DNA of 64,000 nucleotides from a virus (taxonomy: Duplodnaviria > Heunggongvirae > Uroviricota > Caudoviricetes). Where the stretch lies: IMG/VR virus record IMGVR_UViG_3300029705_000072; one strand, given 5' to 3'. The translations under genes and the position numbers were made by a program. The notes beneath the pieces are model-generated. The model saw nothing but the letters and a program-made list of their open reading frames with translations. It was not told the DNA's origin and did not search any database. Within the stretch, counting starts at the first letter, position 1, and each line of letters starts with the position of its first letter. Shown in pieces: positions 3,138 to 47,036 of this stretch.

Positions 3138-3218
3138 GCTCCGATAGCTCAATTGGTTAGAGCGCACGGCTTATACCCGTGGAATCTGCTGGGGGTTCAA
3201 GTCCCTCTCGGAGCACCA
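3138..3218 (+). tRNA. tRNA-Ile (anticodon UAU), encoded CCA
   Basis: acceptor gctccga/tcggagc, D-arm gctc..gagc, anticodon loop cuUAUac, T-loop ttcaagt. Confidence 0.75.
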
Positions 3219-3479
3219 TCGGACCGCGATCGGGTCCCAGTGTAGCGTCCTTGTTAGTTTAAGGGTGAAACTAACTCTTGTCAGTAATGGTGAAACTGTC
3301 CCGTCGGGATATAACGGTAATTCCTTGCGTTTGTGGTGCGAGGCAATTATCCCAACCACATATGTCAACTTAGTTTAAGGCAAGAACACTGCGCTTATGA
3401 TGCAGAGGTATCAGTTGAAGTCTGATAGTTGACTCCCGAAAGGCCTACGGGTGGCTCTCAGGAATAGACTGAGGCATGC
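3219..3479 (+). ncRNA. structured non-coding segment between two tRNAs (unknown RNA)
   Basis: no credible ORF; internal repeats ttagtttaagg x2 and ggtgaaact x2; long-range complement gtcaact(3366)/agttgac(3431); several hairpins. Confidence 0.3.
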
Positions 3480-3554
3480 GCCGTCATGGCTCAATGGTAG
3501 AGCGGCTGCTTTGTAAGCAGCGGGTTGGGGGTTCGAATCCCTCTGGCGGCTCCA
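3480..3554 (+). tRNA. tRNA-Thr (UGU)
   Basis: acceptor gccgtca/tggcggc, anticodon loop ttTGTaa, T-arm ggggg-ttcgaat-ccctc, CCA encoded. Confidence 0.85.
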
Positions 3555-6724: not shown

Positions 6725-6801
6725 AAAACATGTCTGCTGGGCGGTATGTGTGATTGCATGCCGCCCTTATTTATAACTTGAGTACGAAAAGGAGAATAAA
6801 A

Positions 6802-7044
6802 ATGGTACAGGTAAGAATCAGAAACAATTTCGCAGATATCACCGAGGTCTTCAGCGTCGATATGACCATTCGCCAGATTCTGGCCGAGAAGGAGCAGGCA
6901 ATCGATGGCTGCACCGTTTCTCTGGATGGCTACGCACTGAGTGCATCCGATATGGGCAAGACCCTCCTGCAGCACGGCTATGATGGAACCACCGGTAAGG
7001 ACAGATGTAATCTGACCATCGTTGCCAAGACCAATAATGCATAA
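6802..7044 (+). CDS. ubiquitin-like beta-grasp candidate (81 aa), no C-terminal GG
   Basis: Length and hydrophobic periodicity align with ubiquitin (MVQVRIRN.. / ..LDGYAL..TLLQHGY / NLTIVAK vs MQIFVKT / LEDGRTLSDYNI / LHLVLRL); RBS AAAAGGAGAA. Confidence 0.4.
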   Translation: MVQVRIRNNFADITEVFSVDMTIRQILAEKEQAIDGCTVSLDGYALSASDMGKTLLQHGYDGTTGKDRCNLTIVAKTNNA

Positions 7045-7071
7045 GTAACGGCCGGCACAAAGCCGGCTTTT

Positions 7072-7157
7072 GGGGAGTTGGCAGAGTGGCTTAATGCAGC
7101 GGTCCTGAAAACCGTCGATCGAAAGATCCGTGGGTTCGAATCCTACACTCCCCGCCA
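7072..7157 (+). tRNA. type II (long variable arm) tRNA, probably Ser (UGA)
   Basis: acceptor ggggagt/actcccc, variable arm gatcgaaagatc hairpin, anticodon loop ccTGAaa, T-arm gggttcgaatcc; the annotated ORF 7078 starts inside it. Confidence 0.7.
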
Positions 7158-7182
7158 TAAAGAAAAACAGGAGAGGTGTATT

Positions 7183-8604
7183 ATGTTTAAGGAGATTATT
7201 ACAAGAACTGCGCTTTGCAATATCGACGCAAATCAGTACTTCAGTAACATTCGAGGAGACTCATATATGGGCGACGTAACGTTCTTGTCCACACTCAGAG
7301 CTCTCCTGATGAACAGAGTTGATAAAGAAGAGGAACTGCAATTTGTGGTGTCCAGAAGAAGAGTAAGCAACACGCTTAACAACAGAGAACTTGTTAGAGA
7401 GGCTATTGGCGAGCCGGAATATCTCGACAACAACACTTTTTTCCTTGTTGACCTCTCGGGTCCAGTCGATAAAAACAAAGAGATCATTGGTAGACTTGAA
7501 AAATTAATGCCCGAAAGAGGGTTTGAGAATCTGCAGAAGGTCCGTGTGTTTTACAAAAAATCCTTTGAGGTAGCAGCATTTGCCAACGCTAAGAAAAAAA
7601 TCACCGTTGTGGTTGTTGGCAATATGGATATCAGAAAGTATCACTATCTGCAGTGCGCGACGTTCGCTCTCTTCCCTTGGTACTTCAATCCGAAAGATGG
7701 TTGTAGCGAACTCGAAAGACGAATGATCGAAGCAATGCGTCAGAAAGACGGTGATGAGTGCACTGCGTGTTATGAGGAGTTCGCAAGTGGTTTGGATTTC
7801 CGTACCGGAAAAATCAAATCCGCTTTTGAGGGGTTTGAAGAGTCGTTTTTCCTGAAACAGAAAGATAATCTTACTTCTCAGATTAGAAGTATTGACTCTG
7901 ATGTGGAAAGATATCAGAAGACTATCAGAGATATGCTTCAGAAGCGCAGAAATTACATGATGAATCTTGCCGGAATCGACCTCGGTCTCAAACAGGCTAA
8001 CAGCGGCGAACTTGTGGATTATTTCCTTCGGAACAAAAATCTCTCAGTTGTCGATGCGGTCGGGGACTATGTGTATTTCACCATAGACACATATATTACA
8101 GATTTTGTAATCGACGACGCAAAGCCCATAATCGAAAACAGTAGAGGGTATATACATGACGCTATCATGGCAACACCGGATCCCGATGGCACAAAGGCTT
8201 TGTTTAAAGAAATTTTTACAGAAGAGGATCCGCGAATTAGAATTAGAACGAAGGCAAAAGTAAGAATCGGCAAGAGCGGGTCTTTCGACAGCGATAGACC
8301 GATCGGACAGGGCTTGATAAATGACGAACTCAACGACCAAGTCCAGAATACTCATATCTGTAGATATAGCTGTTTTGGCAGTGAAAGAGAGGAGTTTTTT
8401 ACAGAAGCGCTCTCTAGACAGGATCATGTTATGATTGTCGAACAGTGTATCGCTGCGGCTAGAAATCTTAATTTCAACGACAGTATTGTTGGAAGAGATT
8501 TCTTCAACGATCTCGTAAGAACAAACGGAAGGGTGTTTGAGGTTATTGAAACCGGAGAGAAAATGAACCTGGCGGACGCTATTAAGTGGGTAAAGGAGAA
8601 TTAG
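7183..8604 (+). CDS. large hypothetical protein (473 aa), first ORF of an operon with JAB and E1
   Basis: start moved to MFKEII (RBS ACAGGAGAGG) because upstream in-frame codons are tRNA sequence; overlaps the next gene. Confidence 0.6.
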   Translation: MFKEIITRTALCNIDANQYFSNIRGDSYMGDVTFLSTLRALLMNRVDKEEELQFVVSRRRVSNTLNNRELVREAIGEPEYLDNNTFFLVDLSGPVDKNKEIIGRLEKLMPERGFENLQKVRVFYKKSFEVAAFANAKKKITVVVVGNMDIRKYHYLQCATFALFPWYFNPKDGCSELERRMIEAMRQKDGDECTACYEEFASGLDFRTGKIKSAFEGFEESFFLKQKDNLTSQIRSIDSDVERYQKTIRDMLQKRRNYMMNLAGIDLGLKQANSGELVDYFLRNKNLSVVDAVGDYVYFTIDTYITDFVIDDAKPIIENSRGYIHDAIMATPDPDGTKALFKEIFTEEDPRIRIRTKAKVRIGKSGSFDSDRPIGQGLINDELNDQVQNTHICRYSCFGSEREEFFTEALSRQDHVMIVEQCIAAARNLNFNDSIVGRDFFNDLVRTNGRVFEVIETGEKMNLADAIKWVKEN

Positions 8605-11978: not shown

Positions 11979-12053
11979 TGGGGTATCGCCAAGCGGTAAG
12001 GCACAGGGTTTTGATCCCTGTATTCGATGGTTCGAATCCATCTACCTCAGCCA
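11979..12053 (+). tRNA. tRNA-Gln (UUG)
   Basis: close match to the Firmicute tRNA-Gln pattern tggggtatcgccaagcggtaaggc...; anticodon loop ttTTGat; T-arm gatggttcgaatccatc; CCA encoded. Confidence 0.85.
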
Positions 12054-16400: not shown

Positions 16401-16481
16401 GTCCGTGTGGTGGAATGGCAGACACGCAGGGTTTAGGTTCCTGTGCGAAGCGTGTGGGTTCAAGTCCCACCACGGACACCA
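16401..16481 (+). tRNA. tRNA-Leu (UAG), type II
   Basis: perfect 7-bp acceptor gtccgtg/cacggac; anticodon loop ttTAGgt; long variable arm; T-arm gtgggttcaagtcccac. Confidence 0.85.
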
Positions 16482-16484
16482 TAT

Positions 16485-16575
16485 GGCCGGGTAAGCATAG
16501 TTTGGTACTGCAGCGGTTTGCTAAACCGTTCACCGAGTGATCGGTGCGCAGGTTCGAGTCCTGTCCCGGCCGCCA
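16485..16575 (+). tRNA. tRNA-Ser (GCU), type II
   Basis: acceptor ggccggg/cccggcc; anticodon loop ttGCTaa; variable arm caccgagtgatcggtg. Confidence 0.85.
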
Positions 16576-16654
16576 AAAATCTTCGTCGTGGTTGCATTCG
16601 GCGGACGGTTTTTTATACTCCATTAGGCGATAGGTTTATCCCTATCGCCACCCA

Positions 16655-16738
16655 GGGGTTGTGATGGAAAGGCAGACATGACGGACTTAAAATCCGTTGG
16701 AGAAATCCGTGTGGGTTCAAGTCCCACCATCCCCACCA
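16655..16738 (+). tRNA. tRNA-Leu (UAA), type II (one acceptor mismatch)
   Basis: anticodon stem acgga/tccgt with loop ctTAAaa; D-arm matches the other Leu tRNA; T-arm gtgggttcaagtcccac. Confidence 0.75.
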
Positions 16739-16741
16739 TAT

Positions 16742-16834
16742 GGAAAGATAAGCCTAATGGTAAGGCAGCGGTCTCGAAAACCGCCAGTAGCCATCTAAGA
16801 TGGCGTATGAGTTCAAGTCTCATTCTTTCCGCCA
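16742..16834 (+). tRNA. tRNA-Ser (CGA), type II
   Basis: acceptor ggaaaga/tctttcc; anticodon loop ctCGAaa; long variable arm. Confidence 0.8.
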
Positions 16835-16837
16835 TAT

Positions 16838-16914
16838 GCGGCGTTGATGTTCAATGGTTAGCATATCAGCCTTCCAAGCTGAGTGAGCCGGTTCGAGTCC
16901 GGTACGCCGCTCCA
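16838..16914 (+). tRNA. tRNA-Gly (UCC)
   Basis: acceptor gcggcgt/acgccgc; anticodon loop ctTCCaa; T-arm ccggttcgagtccgg. Confidence 0.85.
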
Positions 16915-17035
16915 GCCCCTTGCCCGGGCACACGCTACTTTTCCTTGGTGGTAGATTGGTAAAACCACCTTGTCAGGATGTGGCAGAGACCATACCTTGT
17001 CGGCGGAACGAGGAAACATCCATCCGCTATTTTTT
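16915..17035 (+). other. non-coding segment with degenerate tRNA-like pieces and a T-run
   Basis: ggatgtggcagag resembles the Leu tRNA D-arm; hairpin ggtggtagattggtaaaaccacc; ends in ctattttttc; no intact T-arm. Confidence 0.25.
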
Positions 17036-17112
17036 CTGGGTGTAGCGCAGTTCGGTAGCGCGTCTGTTTTGGGTACAGAAGGCCGCTGGTTCAAATCCAG
17101 TCACTCAGACCA
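17036..17112 (+). tRNA. tRNA-Pro (UGG)
   Basis: acceptor ctgggtg/cactcag; anticodon stem tctgt/acaga with loop ttTGGgt; T-loop ttcaaat; CCA encoded. Confidence 0.85.
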
Positions 17113-37713: not shown

Positions 37714-39897
37714 ATGAAGCCATATGTAACATACCATCTACATAGTCATTACAGCTTGCTAGATAGCTGTACAAAGTTTGAGGACTATGTGGACAAGGCG
37801 GTCGAGCTCGGTCAGAATGCAATCGCTTCTACGGAACACGGCAAGCCAATGGGGTGGATTTCAAAGAAAATGTACTGCGATGAAAAAGGAATTAAGTTCA
37901 TTCATGGCGTGGAAATCTACCTTACTGAGTCGCTAGATGAAAAGGTCAGAGATAACTACCACACGATCCTGCTAGCAAAGAACTTCAGTGGTGTTAAAGA
38001 ACTAAACGCACTTGTTAGTAAGTCGTGTGAAGAAGACCACTTCTACTACACAAACAGAATTTCGTTCGATGAGTTCCTTGGTATTTCCGACAACATCATA
38101 AAGACGAGCGCATGTCTGGCATCACCGCTAAATAAACTGCCAGACGACCATCCGAGATATGAGGAACTGGCTAGGAAGTACGACTTCCTCGAAATACAGG
38201 CTCACGACCATCCGGATCAGGCAGCCTTCAACAAGCGTCTATACGAGCTTTCCAAAAGAATCGGTAAGCCACTGATAGTCGGGACTGATACGCACAGCCT
38301 TGATTCGTACAAGGCGGAGTGCAGAAGCGTTCTTCTGGCGGCAAAGAACAAGAACTACGGTGATGAAGACAGCTTCGATCTTACCTACAAAACATACGAC
38401 GAACTGATTGATATGTTCAAGAAACAGGGCGCGCTTCCAGAAGACGTGTACACTGAGGCTCTTGATAATACGAACCGGCTGTATGAGATGTGCGAAGACT
38501 TCGAACTGGATAAGAGCATTAAGTACCCAATACTGTACGGGTCAAGAGAGGCAGACTCAAAGAAGTTTGAGGAAACCATCTGGGCTATGTTCGAGGAAAA
38601 AGTGGCTACGGGCGTTATTACAGAAGAGCAGAAACAACCGTTCATCGACGCAATTAACGAAGAACTAAGAGTTTTTCAGAAGTTGAAGATGGATGGGTTC
38701 ATGCTTTCGATGTCAGAACTCATCAGGTGGTGCAAGAGCCATGGAATGGCGATAGGAACCGCCAGAGGCTCTGTCGGTGGTTCAAGAATAGCGTACGTCA
38801 CAGACATAATCGACCTCAATCCGGAAACGTGGAAGACGGTTTTCTCTAGATTCTGCAACGAGGACAGAACGGAGATCGGCGATATAGATATAGACGTAGT
38901 CGAATCTGATCGACCAGAGATTTTCCGACATATCATAGGGCGATTCGGTAAGGATAAGACGGCAAGAGTGGCGTCGTTCGGTACGCTGCAGGCAAAAGCC
39001 GTAATAGATGAAGTCGGACGAGCACTCGCAAAGAGATGGGAAGCGAACAATCCCGGAGCTGAAAACAACCCGTACTCATTAAAGCGAATCGCGTCTGTAA
39101 AGGATGAGTTCGATAAGGATCCAGAAGCAACGAAGGAAAAACATAAGGACATATTCTACTACTTCGATGGACTTTTAGGTACAAAGGTTTCCCAGTCAGT
39201 ACACCCAGCCGGCATGGTCATCAGCCCAATCTCACTTAATGAAAACTATGGCGTGTTCGACAAAGACGGCGACATGTGCTTGATGATGGATATGGAAGAG
39301 GCTCATGAGGTCGGCGCTGCTAAATATGACTTCCTTGTTCTTAAAACCGTACAGGTCATAAGAGATACGTGTAGGTACATAGGCACAAGTTATCCCAAGA
39401 CGAATGAAATCAACTGGCTTGACGATGAAGTGTGGGATGACGTTGCAACAAGTCCGATCGGCTTGTTCCAGTTCGAAAGCGGGTTCGCGTTTGAGTGCAT
39501 CAAAAAGTTCAGACCAAGAAGCATCTTTGATATGTCTATTGTAACCGCTTGTATCAGACCGTCTGGTACATCATATAGAGATGAACTGTTACAGCGAAAG
39601 AAGCACAAGAACCCGTCAGAGATCATCGACGGGCTTTTGAGTGAGAACCTTGGATATCTAATCTACCAGGAAGACACGATTAAGTTCCTGCAGCAGATAT
39701 GCGGGCTGTCCGGCAGTGAAGCAGACAACATCAGAAGAGCAATCGGCAGAAAACAAAAGGATAGACTTGATGCGGCGTTGCCGTCGATTCTCGATGGGTA
39801 CTGCAGTAAGTCACAGAAGCCTCGTGATGAGGCAGAGGCAGAAGCGAAAGAATTTCTACAGATAATTGAAGACAGTGCGTCTTATCAATTCGGGTGA
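37714..39897 (+). CDS. dnaE: DNA polymerase III alpha (DnaE) N-terminal exon (PHP + polymerase core)
   Basis: PHP motif YHLHSHYSLLDS...STEHG; the ORF stops inside the conserved FNKSHAAAYA region. Confidence 0.8.
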   Translation: MKPYVTYHLHSHYSLLDSCTKFEDYVDKAVELGQNAIASTEHGKPMGWISKKMYCDEKGIKFIHGVEIYLTESLDEKVRDNYHTILLAKNFSGVKELNALVSKSCEEDHFYYTNRISFDEFLGISDNIIKTSACLASPLNKLPDDHPRYEELARKYDFLEIQAHDHPDQAAFNKRLYELSKRIGKPLIVGTDTHSLDSYKAECRSVLLAAKNKNYGDEDSFDLTYKTYDELIDMFKKQGALPEDVYTEALDNTNRLYEMCEDFELDKSIKYPILYGSREADSKKFEETIWAMFEEKVATGVITEEQKQPFIDAINEELRVFQKLKMDGFMLSMSELIRWCKSHGMAIGTARGSVGGSRIAYVTDIIDLNPETWKTVFSRFCNEDRTEIGDIDIDVVESDRPEIFRHIIGRFGKDKTARVASFGTLQAKAVIDEVGRALAKRWEANNPGAENNPYSLKRIASVKDEFDKDPEATKEKHKDIFYYFDGLLGTKVSQSVHPAGMVISPISLNENYGVFDKDGDMCLMMDMEEAHEVGAAKYDFLVLKTVQVIRDTCRYIGTSYPKTNEINWLDDEVWDDVATSPIGLFQFESGFAFECIKKFRPRSIFDMSIVTACIRPSGTSYRDELLQRKKHKNPSEIIDGLLSENLGYLIYQEDTIKFLQQICGLSGSEADNIRRAIGRKQKDRLDAALPSILDGYCSKSQKPRDEAEAEAKEFLQIIEDSASYQFG

Positions 39898-40850
39898 ACG
39901 GTTCGCCCGTCCGCGTGAAAACGGTCAACTAGGTTGTAAGGCCAAGGTGGTAAGAGAGCCTAAGTCCTTCGGGATATGGTGATACCGTGCTAAGTTTTGT
40001 TTGGATAAAAAGAAAGAAAGGAGGTGTGACATGGAAAACCTGTCTGGACAGAGATTTAAAAGCCTGTTAGTAACGGATGAGTATAAAAGAGAAAAACAAG
40101 AACATGGAACAAAAATTAAGTGGAAATGCGTATGCGATTGCGGAAATGTGTTATTCGTATATGCAGACGCTCTAAAAAGAAGACGTGTTGACTACTGTAG
40201 TAAATGTAGACCGCGTGGAGTTAGAAACGATAGATTATATCACATATTCCACGGAATGATTCAAAGGTGTTATAACACAAAAAACCCGAACTACAAAAAA
40301 TACGGAAGCGCGGGTATTGTTGTTTGTGATCAATGGAAGAACTCCTACGATGAATTTAGGTATTGGGCACAGACCAATGGATACAAAGAAGGTCTTACGA
40401 TAGACAGAATAGATCCACACGGCAATTACTGCCCGGAGAATTGCAGATGGGTTAGTCTTGGTGAAAATGGCGGAAGAGCAAATATCGGTGTTCATAAAAA
40501 TAAAACAAGACTAATTAACCCAGAGGCGGTTTCGCCCGACGGCGAAGTATATAGAATATCGAACATCTCATTATTCGCAAGAGAGAATGGATTAAATCGT
40601 GCGGGCGTTAGTGCTGCTCTCCATGGAAGGTGCGACTGCGAGTATATGGGATGGAGATTTTCATCTAATAAATCCAAACAATAAAAGTGTAACGACTATC
40701 GAGAACACGTTCGCAGAGAAATACTGCGTTCGGAAGTTAGTAGAGTAGGGCGAATAAAGCCCGAAGCGCGTGGGCGCAGTTTCCGGTAAAAGGATGCTGC
40801 GTAAGATATAGTCTGCGCCGTCGGAAACGACGGATCAAAGTGACAACCAT
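39894..40850 (+). mobile_element. group I intron interrupting dnaE, carrying an HNH homing endonuclease ORF
   Basis: dnaE reading frame resumes at about 40849 (..HSIAYCLLGYLCAYYRHYYPLEF aligns with SHAAAYALLAYQTAYLKAHYPAEF); structured flanks; boundaries approximate. Confidence 0.7.
40031..40684 (+). CDS. HNH homing endonuclease (intron-encoded)
   Basis: RLYHIFHGMIQRCYNTKNPNYKKYGSAGIVVCDQWKNSYDEFRYWA and IDRIDPHGNYCPENCRWVSLGEN (HNH_3); RBS AAGGAGGTG. Confidence 0.8.
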   Translation: MENLSGQRFKSLLVTDEYKREKQEHGTKIKWKCVCDCGNVLFVYADALKRRRVDYCSKCRPRGVRNDRLYHIFHGMIQRCYNTKNPNYKKYGSAGIVVCDQWKNSYDEFRYWAQTNGYKEGLTIDRIDPHGNYCPENCRWVSLGENGGRANIGVHKNKTRLINPEAVSPDGEVYRISNISLFARENGLNRAGVSAALHGRCDCEYMGWRFSSNKSKQ

Positions 40851-41801
40851 TCAATCGCATATTGCCTACTCGGGTATCTATGTGCGTACTACCGGCACTA
40901 CTACCCACTGGAATTTATTACGTCGTTTCTGAACAACGCAGCGAACGACGATGATATACAAAGCGGCACGATCCTGGCGAAGCAAAGAGGAATTAAAATC
41001 CTGCAGCCAAAGTTCGGCCTATCAAAAGGAAACTACTTCTTTAATAAGGAAGAGAACGTGATCACCAAGGGACTCGCGTCGGTCAAATATATGGGTGATA
41101 AGGTGTCCGAAGAACTGTACAACATGTCAGTCAAGAAAGAGTACAAGCGCTTCACCGACGTACTGCTTGATATAGAACACGAGACGTCGGTCGATTCGAG
41201 ACAGTTCGAGATTCTGGTGAAGCTTGATTTCTTCTCGCGTTTCGGCAACCAAAGAGAACTGCTTTTAATCCGCGACGTATTCGATATGTTTAAGGGCGGC
41301 GATGCGAAAAAGATAAGCAGGGACAAGGTTGACGGCACGCAGTTTGAGGAAGTGGTTAGAAGGCACTCAACATGGGTGAACAAAAACGGAACCGAATCGA
41401 AAAGTTATACACTACTTCGCCCACTCGAAGTGATAAAAGAGATGGAAGATGTAATTCTCTCGATGGGTATCGAGGACATGACACCAGAGGTACGGGCTAG
41501 GAACTTCTTTGAAATCATGGGGTACGCCGGCTACATAACCGGAAACGAAGAGGACAGAAGAAAGTTGTTCGTAACGGCGGTATTTCCGGTCAAAAGAAAA
41601 AAGGACGGAATGCTGTTCGGGTACAACCTGGTGACACAGTCGATTGGGTCTGGGAAGGAAAGTAGGCTTACCGTATTCAAAAACAAGTACGGATACAAGA
41701 AGTACGATTCGGATCCAATCAAGGAAGGCGACATAATCCTTCTGAAAAAGTACGAGAGAAATGGAGCGTACTTCAATTTGGTAGATTATGTAATTTTGTA
41801 A
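40849..41801 (+). CDS. dnaE: DnaE C-terminal exon
   Basis: conserved ..AY.LL.Y..AY...HYP.EF block in frame with ORF 41058..41801. Confidence 0.7.
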
Positions 41802-43446: not shown

Positions 43447-44032
43447 GTACACTGTACCTGATTATGGATGTGTAAGAAACATTAAGGTATATGGATTAGA
43501 CGAAAGTATTGCTAGGTCAAAGTACCCTAAGAGTGTAGACCCATTTAAAGAAAATGGGAATGTCACAAACACTGTGCTATCTCTTGCTCAATCACAAAAG
43601 GGAGAGGGGCACGACAATTATCTTTGTGGAATTGTTGCGCAGTTCGACCTAGTCTTTTCTGTAAAAGAATGGGTGGAGGCAGAAAGATATCATTTCTTCG
43701 ATATCATTTCGAGCCAGTCCACGATGCATAAGATTTCAGAGTTCGATCTGGACTTGTCGTATGACAAACACGTCGATCCAAGGGTTGTCGAGATAATGAA
43801 GGAACTTGTTGCAAGGTACAAAGAAACCGGCGACCCAGAGGACTACCTGAATGTACTAATGACAAACCCAAACGGATGCATGCTTGTTGCTGGAATAACC
43901 ACCAACTACAGACAGCTTAAGACTATGCTATCTCAGCGAGAAGCACATAGGCTTCCAAGATGGAGAGAGTTCTGCAAGGCAGTAAGAACATTCCCGATGG
44001 CTGGGGAATTTATTGTTAAAAAGAAGGGGTGA
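43438..44032 (+). CDS. hypothetical protein (probable TTG start)
   Basis: ORF preceding nrdD. Confidence 0.4.
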
Positions 44033-45191
44033 TATCTTGTTCGGTAAAGAAAGAATTAAGGTAATTAAGAAGGACGGCACTAGACAGGAGTTTAATGCCG
44101 ACAAGATTAAGAAAGCCATTACGAAGTCCGCAGAGAGAGTAATGGTAAGTCTGAATGAAAGTGATTTTGATACGGTAATCGAGTTCGTAGAAGAAAACCT
44201 TCCCGAAGACGAAGACTGCACCGTAGATGAGATGCACAACATTGTTGAGTGTGCACTAGAAGAACTGAACCCTACGGTCGCCACAAGCTACAGAAACTAC
44301 CGTAACTATAAGAAGGACTTTGTTCACATGCTGGACAAGGTGTACCAGAAGTCACAGTCGATCCGATATATTGGTGATAGAGATAATGCGAATACAGACT
44401 CGGCGCTTGTTCCTACCCAAAGAAGCCTTATCTACAACGAACTTAATAGTGCGTTGTACAAAAAGTTCTTCTTAAACAGGGAAGAACGCGAGGCAATGAA
44501 GGACGGGTATATTTACATCCACGATAGATCTGCGCGACTGGATGCTATAAATTGTTGTTTGGCAAATATTTCGAACATCTTAGACGGCGGTTTTGAGATG
44601 GGTAACGTATGGTATAACGAGCCCAAGACGCTTGATGTAGCATTTGATGTTATCTCTGATATTACAATGTCCGCCGCCGCATGTCAGTATGGCGGATTCA
44701 CAATCCCAAGAGTCGACACAATCTTGGTGCCATATGCAGAAAAGAGCTACCAGAAGTACTTAAAAGAATACTGCGATATTGTGAGCGCGCACACCGGCGA
44801 GCCTGTACTTCGAACCAGCAAAGAGGCTGACGAGTACGCAGCCAAGAAGGTGTATAGAGATTTCGAGCAAGGGTTCCAGTCATGGGAGTACCGATTTAAT
44901 ACCGTCGGTAGCAGCAGGGGTGACTACCCGTTCATCGCAATGAGCCTGGGTATTGATACGTCTCGGTTCGGTCTCATGGCTACAGAGGTTGCTCTGCGCG
45001 TAAGAATGGAAGGTCAGGGTAAGGCTGGTCATAAGAAGCCAGTGCTATTCCCTAAAATCACTTTCTTATACGATGAGAATCTTCATGGAGAAGGCGCCCC
45101 GTACGAATACCTGTTTGATGTTGCGATCGATTGCAGCAGTAAGGCAATGTACCCTAAGAAGATTGGGGCATGTTACGGCAACGTAGCATGA
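44013..45191 (+). CDS. nrdD: anaerobic ribonucleoside-triphosphate reductase NrdD, exon 1 (ATP-cone + N-terminal barrel)
   Basis: ATP-cone KVIKKDGTRQEFNADKIKKAI; class III RNR core. Confidence 0.8.
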   Translation: MLKRRGDILFGKERIKVIKKDGTRQEFNADKIKKAITKSAERVMVSLNESDFDTVIEFVEENLPEDEDCTVDEMHNIVECALEELNPTVATSYRNYRNYKKDFVHMLDKVYQKSQSIRYIGDRDNANTDSALVPTQRSLIYNELNSALYKKFFLNREEREAMKDGYIYIHDRSARLDAINCCLANISNILDGGFEMGNVWYNEPKTLDVAFDVISDITMSAAACQYGGFTIPRVDTILVPYAEKSYQKYLKEYCDIVSAHTGEPVLRTSKEADEYAAKKVYRDFEQGFQSWEYRFNTVGSSRGDYPFIAMSLGIDTSRFGLMATEVALRVRMEGQGKAGHKKPVLFPKITFLYDENLHGEGAPYEYLFDVAIDCSSKAMYPKKIGACYGNVA

Positions 45192-45480
45192 AAACCTTGT
45201 GAACCCAAATATTTGGGGTGTACAGTCGACGTTTAGTATCCGTAGGAAATGACGGATAACGATTGTGCTAACCGGGGAAGCCACGATGTGGTCAATCCGG
45301 TGGGTCGCGTTGTGCGGCCTCAATCGACTATCGAAACGATAACGCAGCACGAAGGCTGCGCGAATAACGGAGTAGAGTACTCTTTCGGTGAAATTCCGAA
45401 CGAGGAAGTGCAAGGCACCCGGCTCCAGTGAATCGGGTGATGATATAGTCAGAGCGGCACACGAGTAAGAGCGTGGTATG
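45189..45480 (+). mobile_element. ORF-less group I intron-like insert splitting nrdD (about 290 nt)
   Basis: conserved NrdD frame stops then resumes 286 nt later; GC-rich structured segment; precedent of introns in phage nrdD; boundaries approximate. Confidence 0.5.
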
Positions 45481-46536
45481 GTAACATACAGCCGCTTGGA
45501 TTTCTTATCTCTTACAGGCGAAGGGTATATCCCTTCAATGTATAAAAAGTACGGAAAGGTCGTATCTCTAATGGGCTGCCGAGCGTCCCTGTCTCCATTC
45601 TACGAACGAGGCGGAATGACACCAGCGGATGAAGATGACGTACCTGTATTTGAAGGAAGATTTAACATGGGCGCAATCTCATTACACCTTCCGATGATTC
45701 TTGCAAAAGCAAGACACGAAAACAAGGACTTCTACGATGTGCTTGACCATTACTTAGAGATGATCAGAAACCTTCATAAAAAGACCTACGATTACTTGGG
45801 CGAAAAGAAAGCATCTACAAATCCTCTTGGATTCTGCCAGGGCGGATTTTACGGCGGCCATCTAAACCCAGATGATAAGATAAGACCTCTGCTTGCTCCT
45901 ATGACAATGAGCTTTGGTATCACGGCTCTGAATGAGTTACAGGAGCTGTACAACGGCAAGTCCTTGGTAGAGGACGGAGAGTTCGCACTAGAGGTAATGA
46001 GATACATAAACGACAGAGTTAACTGGTTCAAAGAACAGGATGGTATTTTATATGCTATCTACGGAACACCGGCAGAGTCGTTGTGTGGACTTCAGGTCGA
46101 GCAGTTCAGAAAGAAGTACGGTATTGTAAATAAGGTTTCAGACAGACCATATGTGAGCAACAGCTTCCATTGCGGCGTGTGGGAAGATATCAACCCAATT
46201 GAAAAGCAGGATCTTGAAGGTCGCTTCTGGGATTTACTCAACGGTGGCAAGATTCAATACTGCAGATATCCAGTATCATACAACAAGGAAGCAATTAAGA
46301 CTCTTGTGAGAAGAGCAATGGATAAGGGCTTCTATGAGGGTATCAATCTGAGTCTTGCCTACTGCGAAGAGTGTGGGTACGAAGAACTTGACATGGATGT
46401 GTGTCCAAAGTGCGGTAGCGAATTGATCACGAAAATCGACCGCATGAACGGCTACCTTGGATATACAAGAGTTCATGGCAAGACCAGATATAATGACGCA
46501 AAGAACGCAGAAATCAAAGACAGAGTTAGTATGTAG
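45478..46536 (+). CDS. nrdD: NrdD exon 2 (glycyl-radical domain + Zn ribbon)
   Basis: MGCRASL; C-terminal CEECGY...CPKCGS and RMNGYLGYTRV (glycyl-radical region). Confidence 0.8.
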   Translation: MVTYSRLDFLSLTGEGYIPSMYKKYGKVVSLMGCRASLSPFYERGGMTPADEDDVPVFEGRFNMGAISLHLPMILAKARHENKDFYDVLDHYLEMIRNLHKKTYDYLGEKKASTNPLGFCQGGFYGGHLNPDDKIRPLLAPMTMSFGITALNELQELYNGKSLVEDGEFALEVMRYINDRVNWFKEQDGILYAIYGTPAESLCGLQVEQFRKKYGIVNKVSDRPYVSNSFHCGVWEDINPIEKQDLEGRFWDLLNGGKIQYCRYPVSYNKEAIKTLVRRAMDKGFYEGINLSLAYCEECGYEELDMDVCPKCGSELITKIDRMNGYLGYTRVHGKTRYNDAKNAEIKDRVSM

Positions 46537-46547
46537 GGGGCGATTTA

Positions 46548-47036
46548 GTGAACTATCATAACATACAGACTGTTGATATGCTGAACGGGGATGGCCTTAG
46601 GGTCACCCTGTTCGTGTCTGGCTGCGAGCATAATTGCCCTGGATGCCAGAATCCTCAAACGCACGATATCAATTCCGGCATAGAGTTCGATGAAGATGCG
46701 ATGAACGAACTGAGGGAGGAACTTAGTAAGGACTACATCTCGGGGGTTACTTTCTCCGGTGGTGATCCAATGCATCCAGAAAACAGGGATGTAGTTGCTG
46801 AAATCATTAAGGGTATAAGCGACCTTGGTAAGACTGTGTGGATTTACACCGGATACAACTGGGACGACATCAAAAACGAGGATGCTGTTTTAATGGCAGA
46901 TGTAGTTGTTGATGGAAGATTTATAGAAAAGCAGGCTGATGTAAATTACCCATGGGGCGGATCCACAAACCAAAGGGTAATAGACGTAAAGAGAAGCATT
47001 GCTGAAAAGGCGGTGAGACTATATGAAACCAATTAA
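46548..47036 (+). CDS. nrdG: anaerobic RNR activating enzyme NrdG (radical SAM)
   Basis: CEHNCPGC CxxxCxxC motif; 162 aa. Confidence 0.8.
   Translation: MNYHNIQTVDMLNGDGLRVTLFVSGCEHNCPGCQNPQTHDINSGIEFDEDAMNELREELSKDYISGVTFSGGDPMHPENRDVVAEIIKGISDLGKTVWIYTGYNWDDIKNEDAVLMADVVVDGRFIEKQADVNYPWGGSTNQRVIDVKRSIAEKAVRLYETN

Follow-up and report, generated by a model that had tools for sequence, protein, structure and literature searches.

A predicted self-splicing group I intron with an I-HmuI-like reading frame in the dnaE gene of a tailed phage

The DNA analysed here is a 64,000-nucleotide (nt) stretch, hereafter the window, of the viral record IMGVR_UViG_3300029705_000072 (IMG/VR; Caudoviricetes), in which the gene dnaE, coding for the alpha subunit of DNA polymerase III (Pol III alpha), is interrupted by 947 nt. 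We consider it highly probable (about 0.9), from sequence comparison, that the segment 39896-40842 is a mobile self-splicing group I intron of subgroup-IA-like type; splicing, as well as nuclease and homing activity of the encoded protein, is what we infer from it. The reading follows from an exactly placed splice junction, boundaries that obey the U.G and omega-G rules, covariation among introns at the same site and a family-specific covariance model, all of which bear out the original prediction that a group I intron of about 950 nt interrupts this gene. The same arrangement is present on 23 public contigs, and twelve other distinct introns occupy exactly the same codon, so that it is no accident. 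The main features, including the open reading frame (ORF) that the intron carries, are the following:

37714-39895, plus strand: dnaE exon 1, 727 codons and the first base of a Tyr codon, delimited by the ORF list, by the Pfam domains PHP, DNA_pol3_alpha and DNA_pol3_finger and, for the junction, by uninterrupted homologues.
39896-40842, plus strand: group I intron, 947 nt, subgroup-IA-like, ending in omega-G 40842.
40031-40684, plus strand: intron ORF of 217 amino acids (aa), from ATG 40031 to the stop at 40682-40684, in the P6a loop.
40843-41801, plus strand: dnaE exon 2, in which AC completes the Tyr codon, followed by NHSIAY... to the stop, with an HHH_6 domain.

Starting at 37714, the Pol III alpha ORF of 727 codons contains the PHP, DNA_pol3_alpha and finger domains and ends with UGA 39895-39897, within the motif that aligns to ...YGFNKSHAAAY of Taq DnaE, as had been noticed originally. 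U39895 is the last base of exon 1 and marks the 5' splice site, which the in-frame UGA straddles. The conserved dnaE continuation HSIAYCLLGYLCAYYRHYYPLEF is found from 40848, close to the proposed 40849, with the true start of exon 2 at 40843, and from about 40843 to 41801 a frame encoding ...YNHSIAYCLLGYLCAYYRHYYPLEF... and the HhH domain runs to the end of the gene. This is a different frame from that of exon 1, contrary to the initial claim of a shared one: in genomic positions the exon 1 codons start at 1 mod 3 and the exon 2 codons at 0 mod 3, and the frame is restored only on removal of 947 nt (3n+2). When 37714-39895 and 40843-41801 are joined, one open frame of 1046 codons results, with the junction peptide SASYQFGYNHSIAY, reading ...IIEDSASYQFG-Y-NHSIAYCLLGY... 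across the joint. At the RNA level exon 1 ends in ...UUCGGGU and exon 2 begins with ACAACCAUUC; the Tyr is obtained solely when the cuts fall directly behind U39895 and G40842.

Over residues 4-881 the spliced product is similar to DnaE of Taq and E. coli (E=2e-77 to 1e-64), and Pfam on the exons gives one spliced polypeptide with the domain order of DnaE (PHP, Pol III alpha, finger, HhH). Its alignment to DnaE, one of the checks that had been suggested, is gapless at the joint against the Taq protein (iiedsasyqfgynhsiay / mleafanygfnkshaaay, E=2e-77). A homologue search over 5.8 billion proteins returned thousands of relatives, of which the best uninterrupted DnaE proteins measure 1042-1048 aa and are 68-72% identical at 100% query coverage; all twelve of those inspected read IIEDSASYQFG-Y/F-NHS[IV]AYCLLGY at the joint with no indel, the junction Tyr being replaced by Phe in one. 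In two intron-less alleles the DNA is continuous at the junction codon (GGT/GGG TAT AAC CA), and the intron-less site in contigs L214 and L216 surrounds TTYGGKTAYAACCA.

In the window, dnaE belongs to a replication module that also includes dnaB and primase. When the locus was searched by megablast in 50,697 phage records, no match came back, and hence no annotated close relative. Ten of the 23 contigs with the same arrangement were read and are 100% identical across the 947 nt. A JGI contig (L005, Ga0257091_10020793, 1-2867) carries the identical intron and exon 2 with just a 249-aa dnaE fragment upstream, preceded by an ERF recombinase gene in place of primase; it represents a recombinant genome or else was assembled as a chimera.

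Same-site introns were recovered through pattern scans of IMG/VR and JGI metagenomes. The twelve distinct ones lie in diverged dnaE genes, and each follows ...GGGU and ends in G, as does the window intron, giving 13 introns at the site with a terminal G; four of the twelve are ORF-less and six hold an ORF of more than 150 codons. Nine share the core of the window intron (type A). Among these, L061, L105, L129 and L213 are ORF-less (270-287 nt), a shorter homologue of the window ORF is present in L097, L118, L204 and L210, and L209 has a 237-codon ORF with the same N-terminal module. The other three (L196 at 6753-7583, L201 and L202, type B) have a different P2-P6 region at the same insertion site; the ORF of L196 encodes a canonical NUMOD4-HNH_3-NUMOD1 endonuclease, and the type B ORFs show no BLAST similarity to the window ORF. 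Over their first 17 nt, the introns of L202 and of the window do not differ. Many intron-less dnaE alleles exist as well. One site thus hosts intron-plus, ORF-less and intron-minus alleles, a hallmark of homing genes, and a polymorphism that includes empty sites, two ORF forms and two intron types would be the expected residue of repeated homing with gain and loss of the ORF.

The intron folds into the elements listed below, all on the plus strand.

39891-39909, plus strand: P1, exon CGGGU (39891-39895) with the internal guide GCCCG (39905-39909) and the wobble U39895.G39905 at the 5' splice site, read from the sequence, with the same pairing in ten homologues.
39900-39903, plus strand: P10 guide GGUU, pairing with AACC 40845-40848 of exon 2.
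39911-39917, plus strand: P3, CCGCGUG with CGCGUGG 40767-40773, five of its seven pairs compensatory.
39921-39988, plus strand: P4 and P5 region, P4 being ACGGU 39921-39925 with ACCGU 39984-39988.
P5 region hairpins, plus strand: a GNRA hairpin at 39932-39943, GGUAAGAGAGCC at 39949-39960 and GUCC-UUCG-GGAU at 39964-39975.
39989-40688, plus strand: P6 and P6a, P6 being GCU 39989-39991 with AGU 40686-40688, and P6a UUGUUUGGAU 39997-40006 with AUCCAAACAA 40672-40681.
40694-40813, plus strand: 3' core, with P7 (GACUA 40694-40698 with UAGUC 40809-40813, a pseudoknot with P3), P7.1 (40707-40733) and P7.2 (40748-40762).
3' core, continued, plus strand: P3' (40767-40773), P8 (40774-40802) and J8/7 (AAGAUAU, 40803-40809).
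40818-40842, plus strand: P9 hairpin CCGUCG-GAAA-CGACGG (40818-40833), all six pairs covarying, and the tail AUCAAAGUG ending in omega-G 40842.

The P3-P7-P9 core, on which the original prediction had made the intron depend, is therefore present, together with the conserved elements J6/7-P7 (AACGACUA, 40691-40698) and J8/7-P7' (AAGAUAUAGUC, 40803-40813). The P6a stem, a perfect 10-bp complement, closes the ORF-bearing loop, and its 3' strand consists of the last codons of the ORF, with the stop adjoining. Between P7 (GACUA) and P3' (CGCGUGG) lie both P7.1 and P7.2, a hallmark of subgroup IA, and the P7.1 loop AGAAAUA is common to most of the ten type A introns; the intron is accordingly IA-like, an assignment made purely by architecture.

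Covariation was analysed in an alignment of the ten type A introns including that of the window, with the ORF loops trimmed internally. MAFFT misregistered P7.1 and the outermost P1 pair, both of which were excluded from the pair counts, while P1 and P10 were examined separately, anchored on GCCC. RNAalifold predicted P1, P3, P4, P5 with three small hairpins, P6a, P7.2, P8 and P9, with a covariation term of -14.4 kcal/mol and double changes in 40 of 73 pairs. After addition of P7 and removal of spurious helices, standard pairs fill 97.2% of the 652 cells, versus 38-43% in controls whose 3' partners were slid along by 1-3 columns. Compensatory changes occur in 39 of 67 pairs, with most of the signal in P3 (5/7 pairs), P6a (8/8), P8 (11/12) and P9 (6/6).

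The helices that involve exon bases behave in the same manner. The U.G at the end of P1 is invariant in the ten homologues, and the pair at exon position -5 is C-G for the window intron, U.G for L105 and U-A for most of the rest. P10 alternates between GGUU/AACC and GAUU/AAUC, tracking the third base of the exon 2 Asn codon (AAC/AAU). P1 and P10 thus follow synonymous bases of the exons, which argues that the ribozyme co-evolves with synonymous sites of its host gene. Finally, a covariance model (R1) built on the 3' domains of the nine non-window type A introns finds the window intron at 40683-40841 with 130.7 bits (E about 2e-34).

Concerning the intron ORF, its ATG at 40031 is preceded by the Shine-Dalgarno sequence AAAGGAGG at 40017-40024, so that the strong ribosome-binding site originally attributed to it is indeed there. 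TTG 40001 was rejected as start, since it lies inside the P6a stem and has no Shine-Dalgarno sequence, whereas ATG 40031 does and the public calls give 217 aa. Three parts make up the predicted product: a Cys4 zinc-ribbon-like module at the N-terminus, a core that is HNH-like (I-HmuI-like) and a NUMOD-like helix-turn-helix at the C-terminus. PHROGs assigns it to phrog_374, 'HNH endonuclease' (7e-48), and Pfam gives no more than a weak, sub-threshold I-HmuI NUMOD-like match at the C-terminus. The family is large, with 1382 relatives at E<=1e-5, most of them without a Pfam domain or name; in a set of 67 relatives, HNH_3 is found in one (E=0.028) and the NUMOD-like domain in 14. The AlphaFold model (pLDDT 94.4) has I-HmuI (1u3e) as best fold match, and the beta-beta-alpha-metal fold is recognised in it. 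While a PDB search with the single ORF sequence gave weak similarity to an L31 zinc ribbon at the N-terminus, the family profile reached I-HmuI as the sole PDB match (E=0.003), with GLTIDRID..GNYCPENCRW aligned to GLVVDHKDGNKDNNLSTNLRW.

In the profile alignment D125-R126 stand opposite the DH of I-HmuI, which places Arg126 (of IDRID) at the position of the catalytic His. In the work on I-HmuI 1U3E, this His is reportedly the first H of the HNH motif and acts as the general base. Among the relatives D125 is nearly invariant and N137 invariant, and a distal Asn (GEN.../EQ..N) aligns loosely with INVEN of I-HmuI. The ORF is hence I-HmuI-like in architecture and not the textbook HNH_3 enzyme it had been taken for, and its motif reads YKKYGSAGI rather than the YKNYGGRGI quoted at first; of the proposed HNH homing endonuclease, the likeness to I-HmuI in profile and predicted fold holds, and the canonical catalytic His does not. 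The protein, a putative nuclease or DNA binder, most likely targets intron-less dnaE alleles.

Several observations weigh against this picture, in part or as a whole. At the gathering threshold Rfam calls no intron in the whole window. In E-value mode RF00028 (Intron_gpI) scores 18.7 bits (E=0.054) against a gathering score of 50, at 40643-40834, aligning AAGAUAUAGUCU and the GAAA-capped P9 (J8/7-P7'-P9), so that the Infernal check proposed for the insert would have been a false negative. L061, a homologue with no ORF, likewise stays below 50, at 42.2 bits (E=8e-8). We ascribe the shortfall to the 660-nt ORF loop and to poor coverage of phage introns by the model (PMC11878797); such introns are often scored poorly by Rfam, and 'HNH' PHROG families occupy their loops (PMC11878797). 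P7 is invariant in the ten introns, which is consistent with the structure and is no covariation evidence either way. None of 500 shuffles matched any of the covariation measures, a statistic inflated by the kinship of the aligned introns and by the trimmed P6 loops, the slid controls being the fairer comparison. The ten read copies of the window intron are identical, and nothing in them shows recent movement of this copy. As for the ORF, Pfam HNH_3 has no match in it and Arg126 is invariant in all 67 relatives; with Arg in place of the general-base His and HNH_3 failing, canonical DNA cleavage may not occur.

Among the alternatives to a spliced dnaE, the two pieces could be translated separately and form an enzyme of two subunits, in which case no RNA would be spliced and the endonuclease gene between them would be free-standing. 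Gene callers indeed annotate 727 aa, 217 aa and 247 aa at the locus, and phage TR-TP1 is annotated with two 'DNA polymerase' coding sequences around an HNH gene, with no Rfam match there. We nevertheless hold a split polymerase to be extremely improbable. Exon 2 has no in-frame ATG, GTG or TTG upstream of GTG 41058, and 72 conserved codons would therefore be untranslatable without splicing; the break divides a codon within the most highly conserved finger/HhH-junction motif; the flanks follow the U.G, omega-G and P10 rules, with covariation; and a covarying group I fold is kept even in the ORF-less homologues, for which an intergenic spacer has no reason. It is also very unlikely that the insert is group I-derived but no longer splices, leaving dnaE a pseudogene in the phage. 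The low Rfam score would fit such decay, but the window copy has lost none of its core helices and scores well with the family model; both exons are open and about 70% identical to intact homologues over their full length; the sequence is identical in at least ten contigs from independent samples, as for a viable phage; and dnaE keeps its place beside dnaB and primase. An element acting on the protein, be it an intein or a homing endonuclease gene flanked by split inteins in a fractured gene, has precedents, since DnaE genes host inteins, a cyanobacterial split intein lies in the same motif (AEY-CFN; PMC8484483) and fractured genes with split inteins and a nuclease gene are known (PMC2677866). 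Here its probability is practically nil: the insert has stops in all frames, the exons are in different frames, the exon ends coincide exactly with extein sequence, leaving no intein N or C fragments, and Pfam shows no Hint/intein domain. Frames, stop codons and absent intein blocks led us to discard it, and translational bypass or frameshifting was discarded too, 947 nt with a folded ribozyme being incompatible with bypass.

A more serious alternative, though less likely than not, concerns the ORF within a real intron: its product might not be an active homing nuclease and could be a DNA binder, a maturase-like splicing helper or a non-canonical nuclease. The invariant Arg at the I-HmuI catalytic position and the near absence of HNH_3 among the relatives point in this direction, as does the canonical HNH_3 gene in a different same-site intron, which indicates that canonical enzymes are available for this target. 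Against it stand the size of the family and its grouping with HNH endonucleases in PHROGs, the I-HmuI-like domain order with the conserved Asp, Asn and Cys residues, and the presence of the ORF in the P6 loop of several diverged same-site introns that also have ORF-less versions, which is how a mobile nuclease gene, unlike an essential splicing factor, is distributed. Even more tentatively, the ORF may belong to a large uncharacterised I-HmuI-like branch in which the catalytic His is always Arg. Should proteins of this Arg type retain the ability to nick or cut DNA, their His-Me-finger chemistry must be a variant one; should they lack it, abundant phage 'HNH endonuclease' annotations are wrong, and these intron ORFs spread or persist otherwise, for instance by recombination-provoking DNA binding or by help in splicing. 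The Arg-for-His ORF is a cheap and well-defined biochemical test case.

Taking the insert as a group I intron, the following course of events can be proposed. The gene would be transcribed through the intron, and ribosomes on exon 1 would stop at the UGA overlapping the 5' splice site, which would keep them off the ribozyme. In the folded RNA, U39895 would be displayed by P1 as part of the U.G wobble; a free guanosine, bound by the P3-P8 core and its P7 pseudoknot, would attack after U39895 and release exon 1. P10 would then align exon 2, omega-G40842 would enter the G site and the exons would be ligated, recreating the Tyr codon U-AC and the DnaE motif SYQFGYNHSIAY in a single 1046-aa polymerase. 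The ORF in the P6a loop would be translated from its own Shine-Dalgarno sequence into an I-HmuI-like DNA-binding protein, which most likely would target the intron-less dnaE of co-infecting relatives, the intron spreading through recombinational repair (homing).

Among the closest comparable elements are those of the Bacillus phages SPO1 and SP82, with the HNH nicking enzymes I-HmuI and I-HmuII. In both cases a group I intron sits in the replicative DNA polymerase gene of a phage, inserted in a highly conserved motif and with an ORF in a peripheral loop, and the window ORF resembles I-HmuI in its sole PDB profile match, its best fold match and its NUMOD-like C-terminal domain. The host gene here, however, is a family C DnaE (Pol III alpha) and theirs is of Pol I type, and the window ORF differs in its extra N-terminal zinc-ribbon module, the Arg for the catalytic His and the lack of an HNH_3 match. 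The IA2 introns of T4 (td, nrdB and nrdD, or sunY) share the P7.1/P7.2 layout between P7 and P3', the stop just past the 5' splice site and the choice of nucleotide-metabolism and replication genes, the window too having an intron in nrdD. The td intron ORF is likewise looped out of the core; the T4 intron ORFs are GIY-YIG or other endonucleases, unlike the window ORF, and no sequence similarity to the window intron is detectable.

The closest detectable RNA relatives are found in Bastillevirinae and Herelleviridae. Sensitive blastn against phages aligns intron nt 49-101 (the P4-P5 region) at 78-88% identity to sequences in the gaps of split genes, namely split nrdE (Listeria phage LP-083-2, Staphylococcus phage PMBT8) and split terminase (Bacillus phages SIOphi and BSP12). 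Rfam finds introns in SIOphi, and the SIOphi TerL introns self-splice in vitro (PMC11878797). These introns have the R and S elements in common with the window intron, as well as the arrangement of P7.1/P7.2; they differ in their hosts (terminase, nrdE and Pol I) and phage lineage, and none is reported in dnaE (PMC11878797). The gut 'Jug' jumbo phages also have genes split by group I introns and HNH genes (terL, nrdD and DNA polymerase), with splicing confirmed by metatranscriptome reads (PMC12880540). They resemble the present case as phages of gut or animal metagenomes with split genes, but are Bacteroides phages of 360-402 kb with introns of mostly about 206 nt, whereas the longest contig seen here has about 107 kb. 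The window phage itself appears, from homologues named from Flavonifractor and Lachnospiraceae, to be of Clostridia type.

The cyanobacterial DnaE split intein (Ssp/Npu), with native exteins AEY-CFN (PMC8484483), is another selfish element in the same DnaE motif, AEY-CFN aligning with ASY-QFG. That element acts by protein splicing, leaving its host protein once translation is over, and has no relation to the intron in either mechanism or sequence. The intron site (39880-39895 / 40843-40860, SYQFG-YNHS) would lie 3 codons and 1 nt downstream of the homologous split-intein site, and intron and intein seem to converge on one conserved DnaE motif. The dnaE codon SYQFG-Y-NHS might conceivably be a hotspot that two or more intron types have entered in separate invasions, with the DnaE split intein of cyanobacteria three codons away.

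Elements of this kind are well known; for the host gene and site we could not find an earlier description. In the literature covered, which left out most subscription journals and is thus weak evidence of novelty, no group I intron was described in a phage dnaE. Introns are a classic feature of phage genes for polymerases and nucleotide metabolism, and the present case adds the family C (DnaE) polymerase of gut-type phages to these. Public records annotate such dnaE genes as fragments; the window gene should be annotated as one DnaE of 1046 aa, not as fragments of 727 aa and 247 aa, with the same correction for every contig that carries these introns. The natural series at one site (empty, ORF-less, two ORF architectures and two intron types) is material for the study of the homing cycle and of marker exclusion among phages in competition.

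Two further phages have dnaE broken into separate coding sequences at positions other than that of the window, with an HNH or hypothetical gene between the parts: Thomasclavelia phage TR-TP1 (L001, 1489-6114), near residue 550, and Lysinibacillus phage LC76P1 (L002, 1483-6029), near residue 480. Rfam gave no group I match at E<=1 on these two breaks, which may be further unrecognised introns or inteins. A 3'-domain signature, UAACGACUAUCGA...GUAGAGUAGG, is very common in viral contigs (L018-L195; at least 120 matches), and among the matches listed 5 of the 101 distinct non-window ones are in dnaE. Being mostly outside dnaE, the signature suggests that the intron family is widespread in other phage genes.

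In the window itself, nrdD is also interrupted:

45156-45498, plus strand: second group I intron, ORF-less, 343 nt, interrupting nrdD (anaerobic ribonucleotide reductase) between 44013-45155 and 45499-46536.

This intron follows U45155 and ends in G45498, with P1 probably formed by CCCU/GGGG. The uninterrupted homologue MT835545.1 (72% identical; ...DCSSKTMYP-DWLSMSGEGYI) fixes the junction at 45155/45499 (KAMYP-DFLS), which ruled out an alternative junction at 45173/45481 based on a hairpin with a U.G. R1 finds the nrdD intron at 45321-45471 with 40.1 bits (E about 2e-9), and it is of the same broad family as the dnaE intron; Rfam gives nothing there even at E<=10. The Rfam check thus fails on both introns of the window, and a family-specific model is needed, as the ten-sequence alignment and the model built from it illustrate. 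The nrdG activase gene comes after nrdD, at 46548-47036.

Elsewhere, the start of the window holds a cluster of RNAs of self-cleaving-ribozyme type on the plus strand (191-262, 791-858 and 1845-1914), comprising a RAGATH-16 RNA above the Rfam gathering score (71 bits) and two twister-P1 ribozyme matches of 57.7 and 63.4 bits versus a gathering score of 67.2 (E 2e-10 and 5e-12). Eleven tRNA genes, all on the plus strand and one of them (16838-16910) also tRNA-Sec-like below threshold, lie partly in tight arrays at 3138-3551, 7072-7154, 11979-12050 and 16401-17109.

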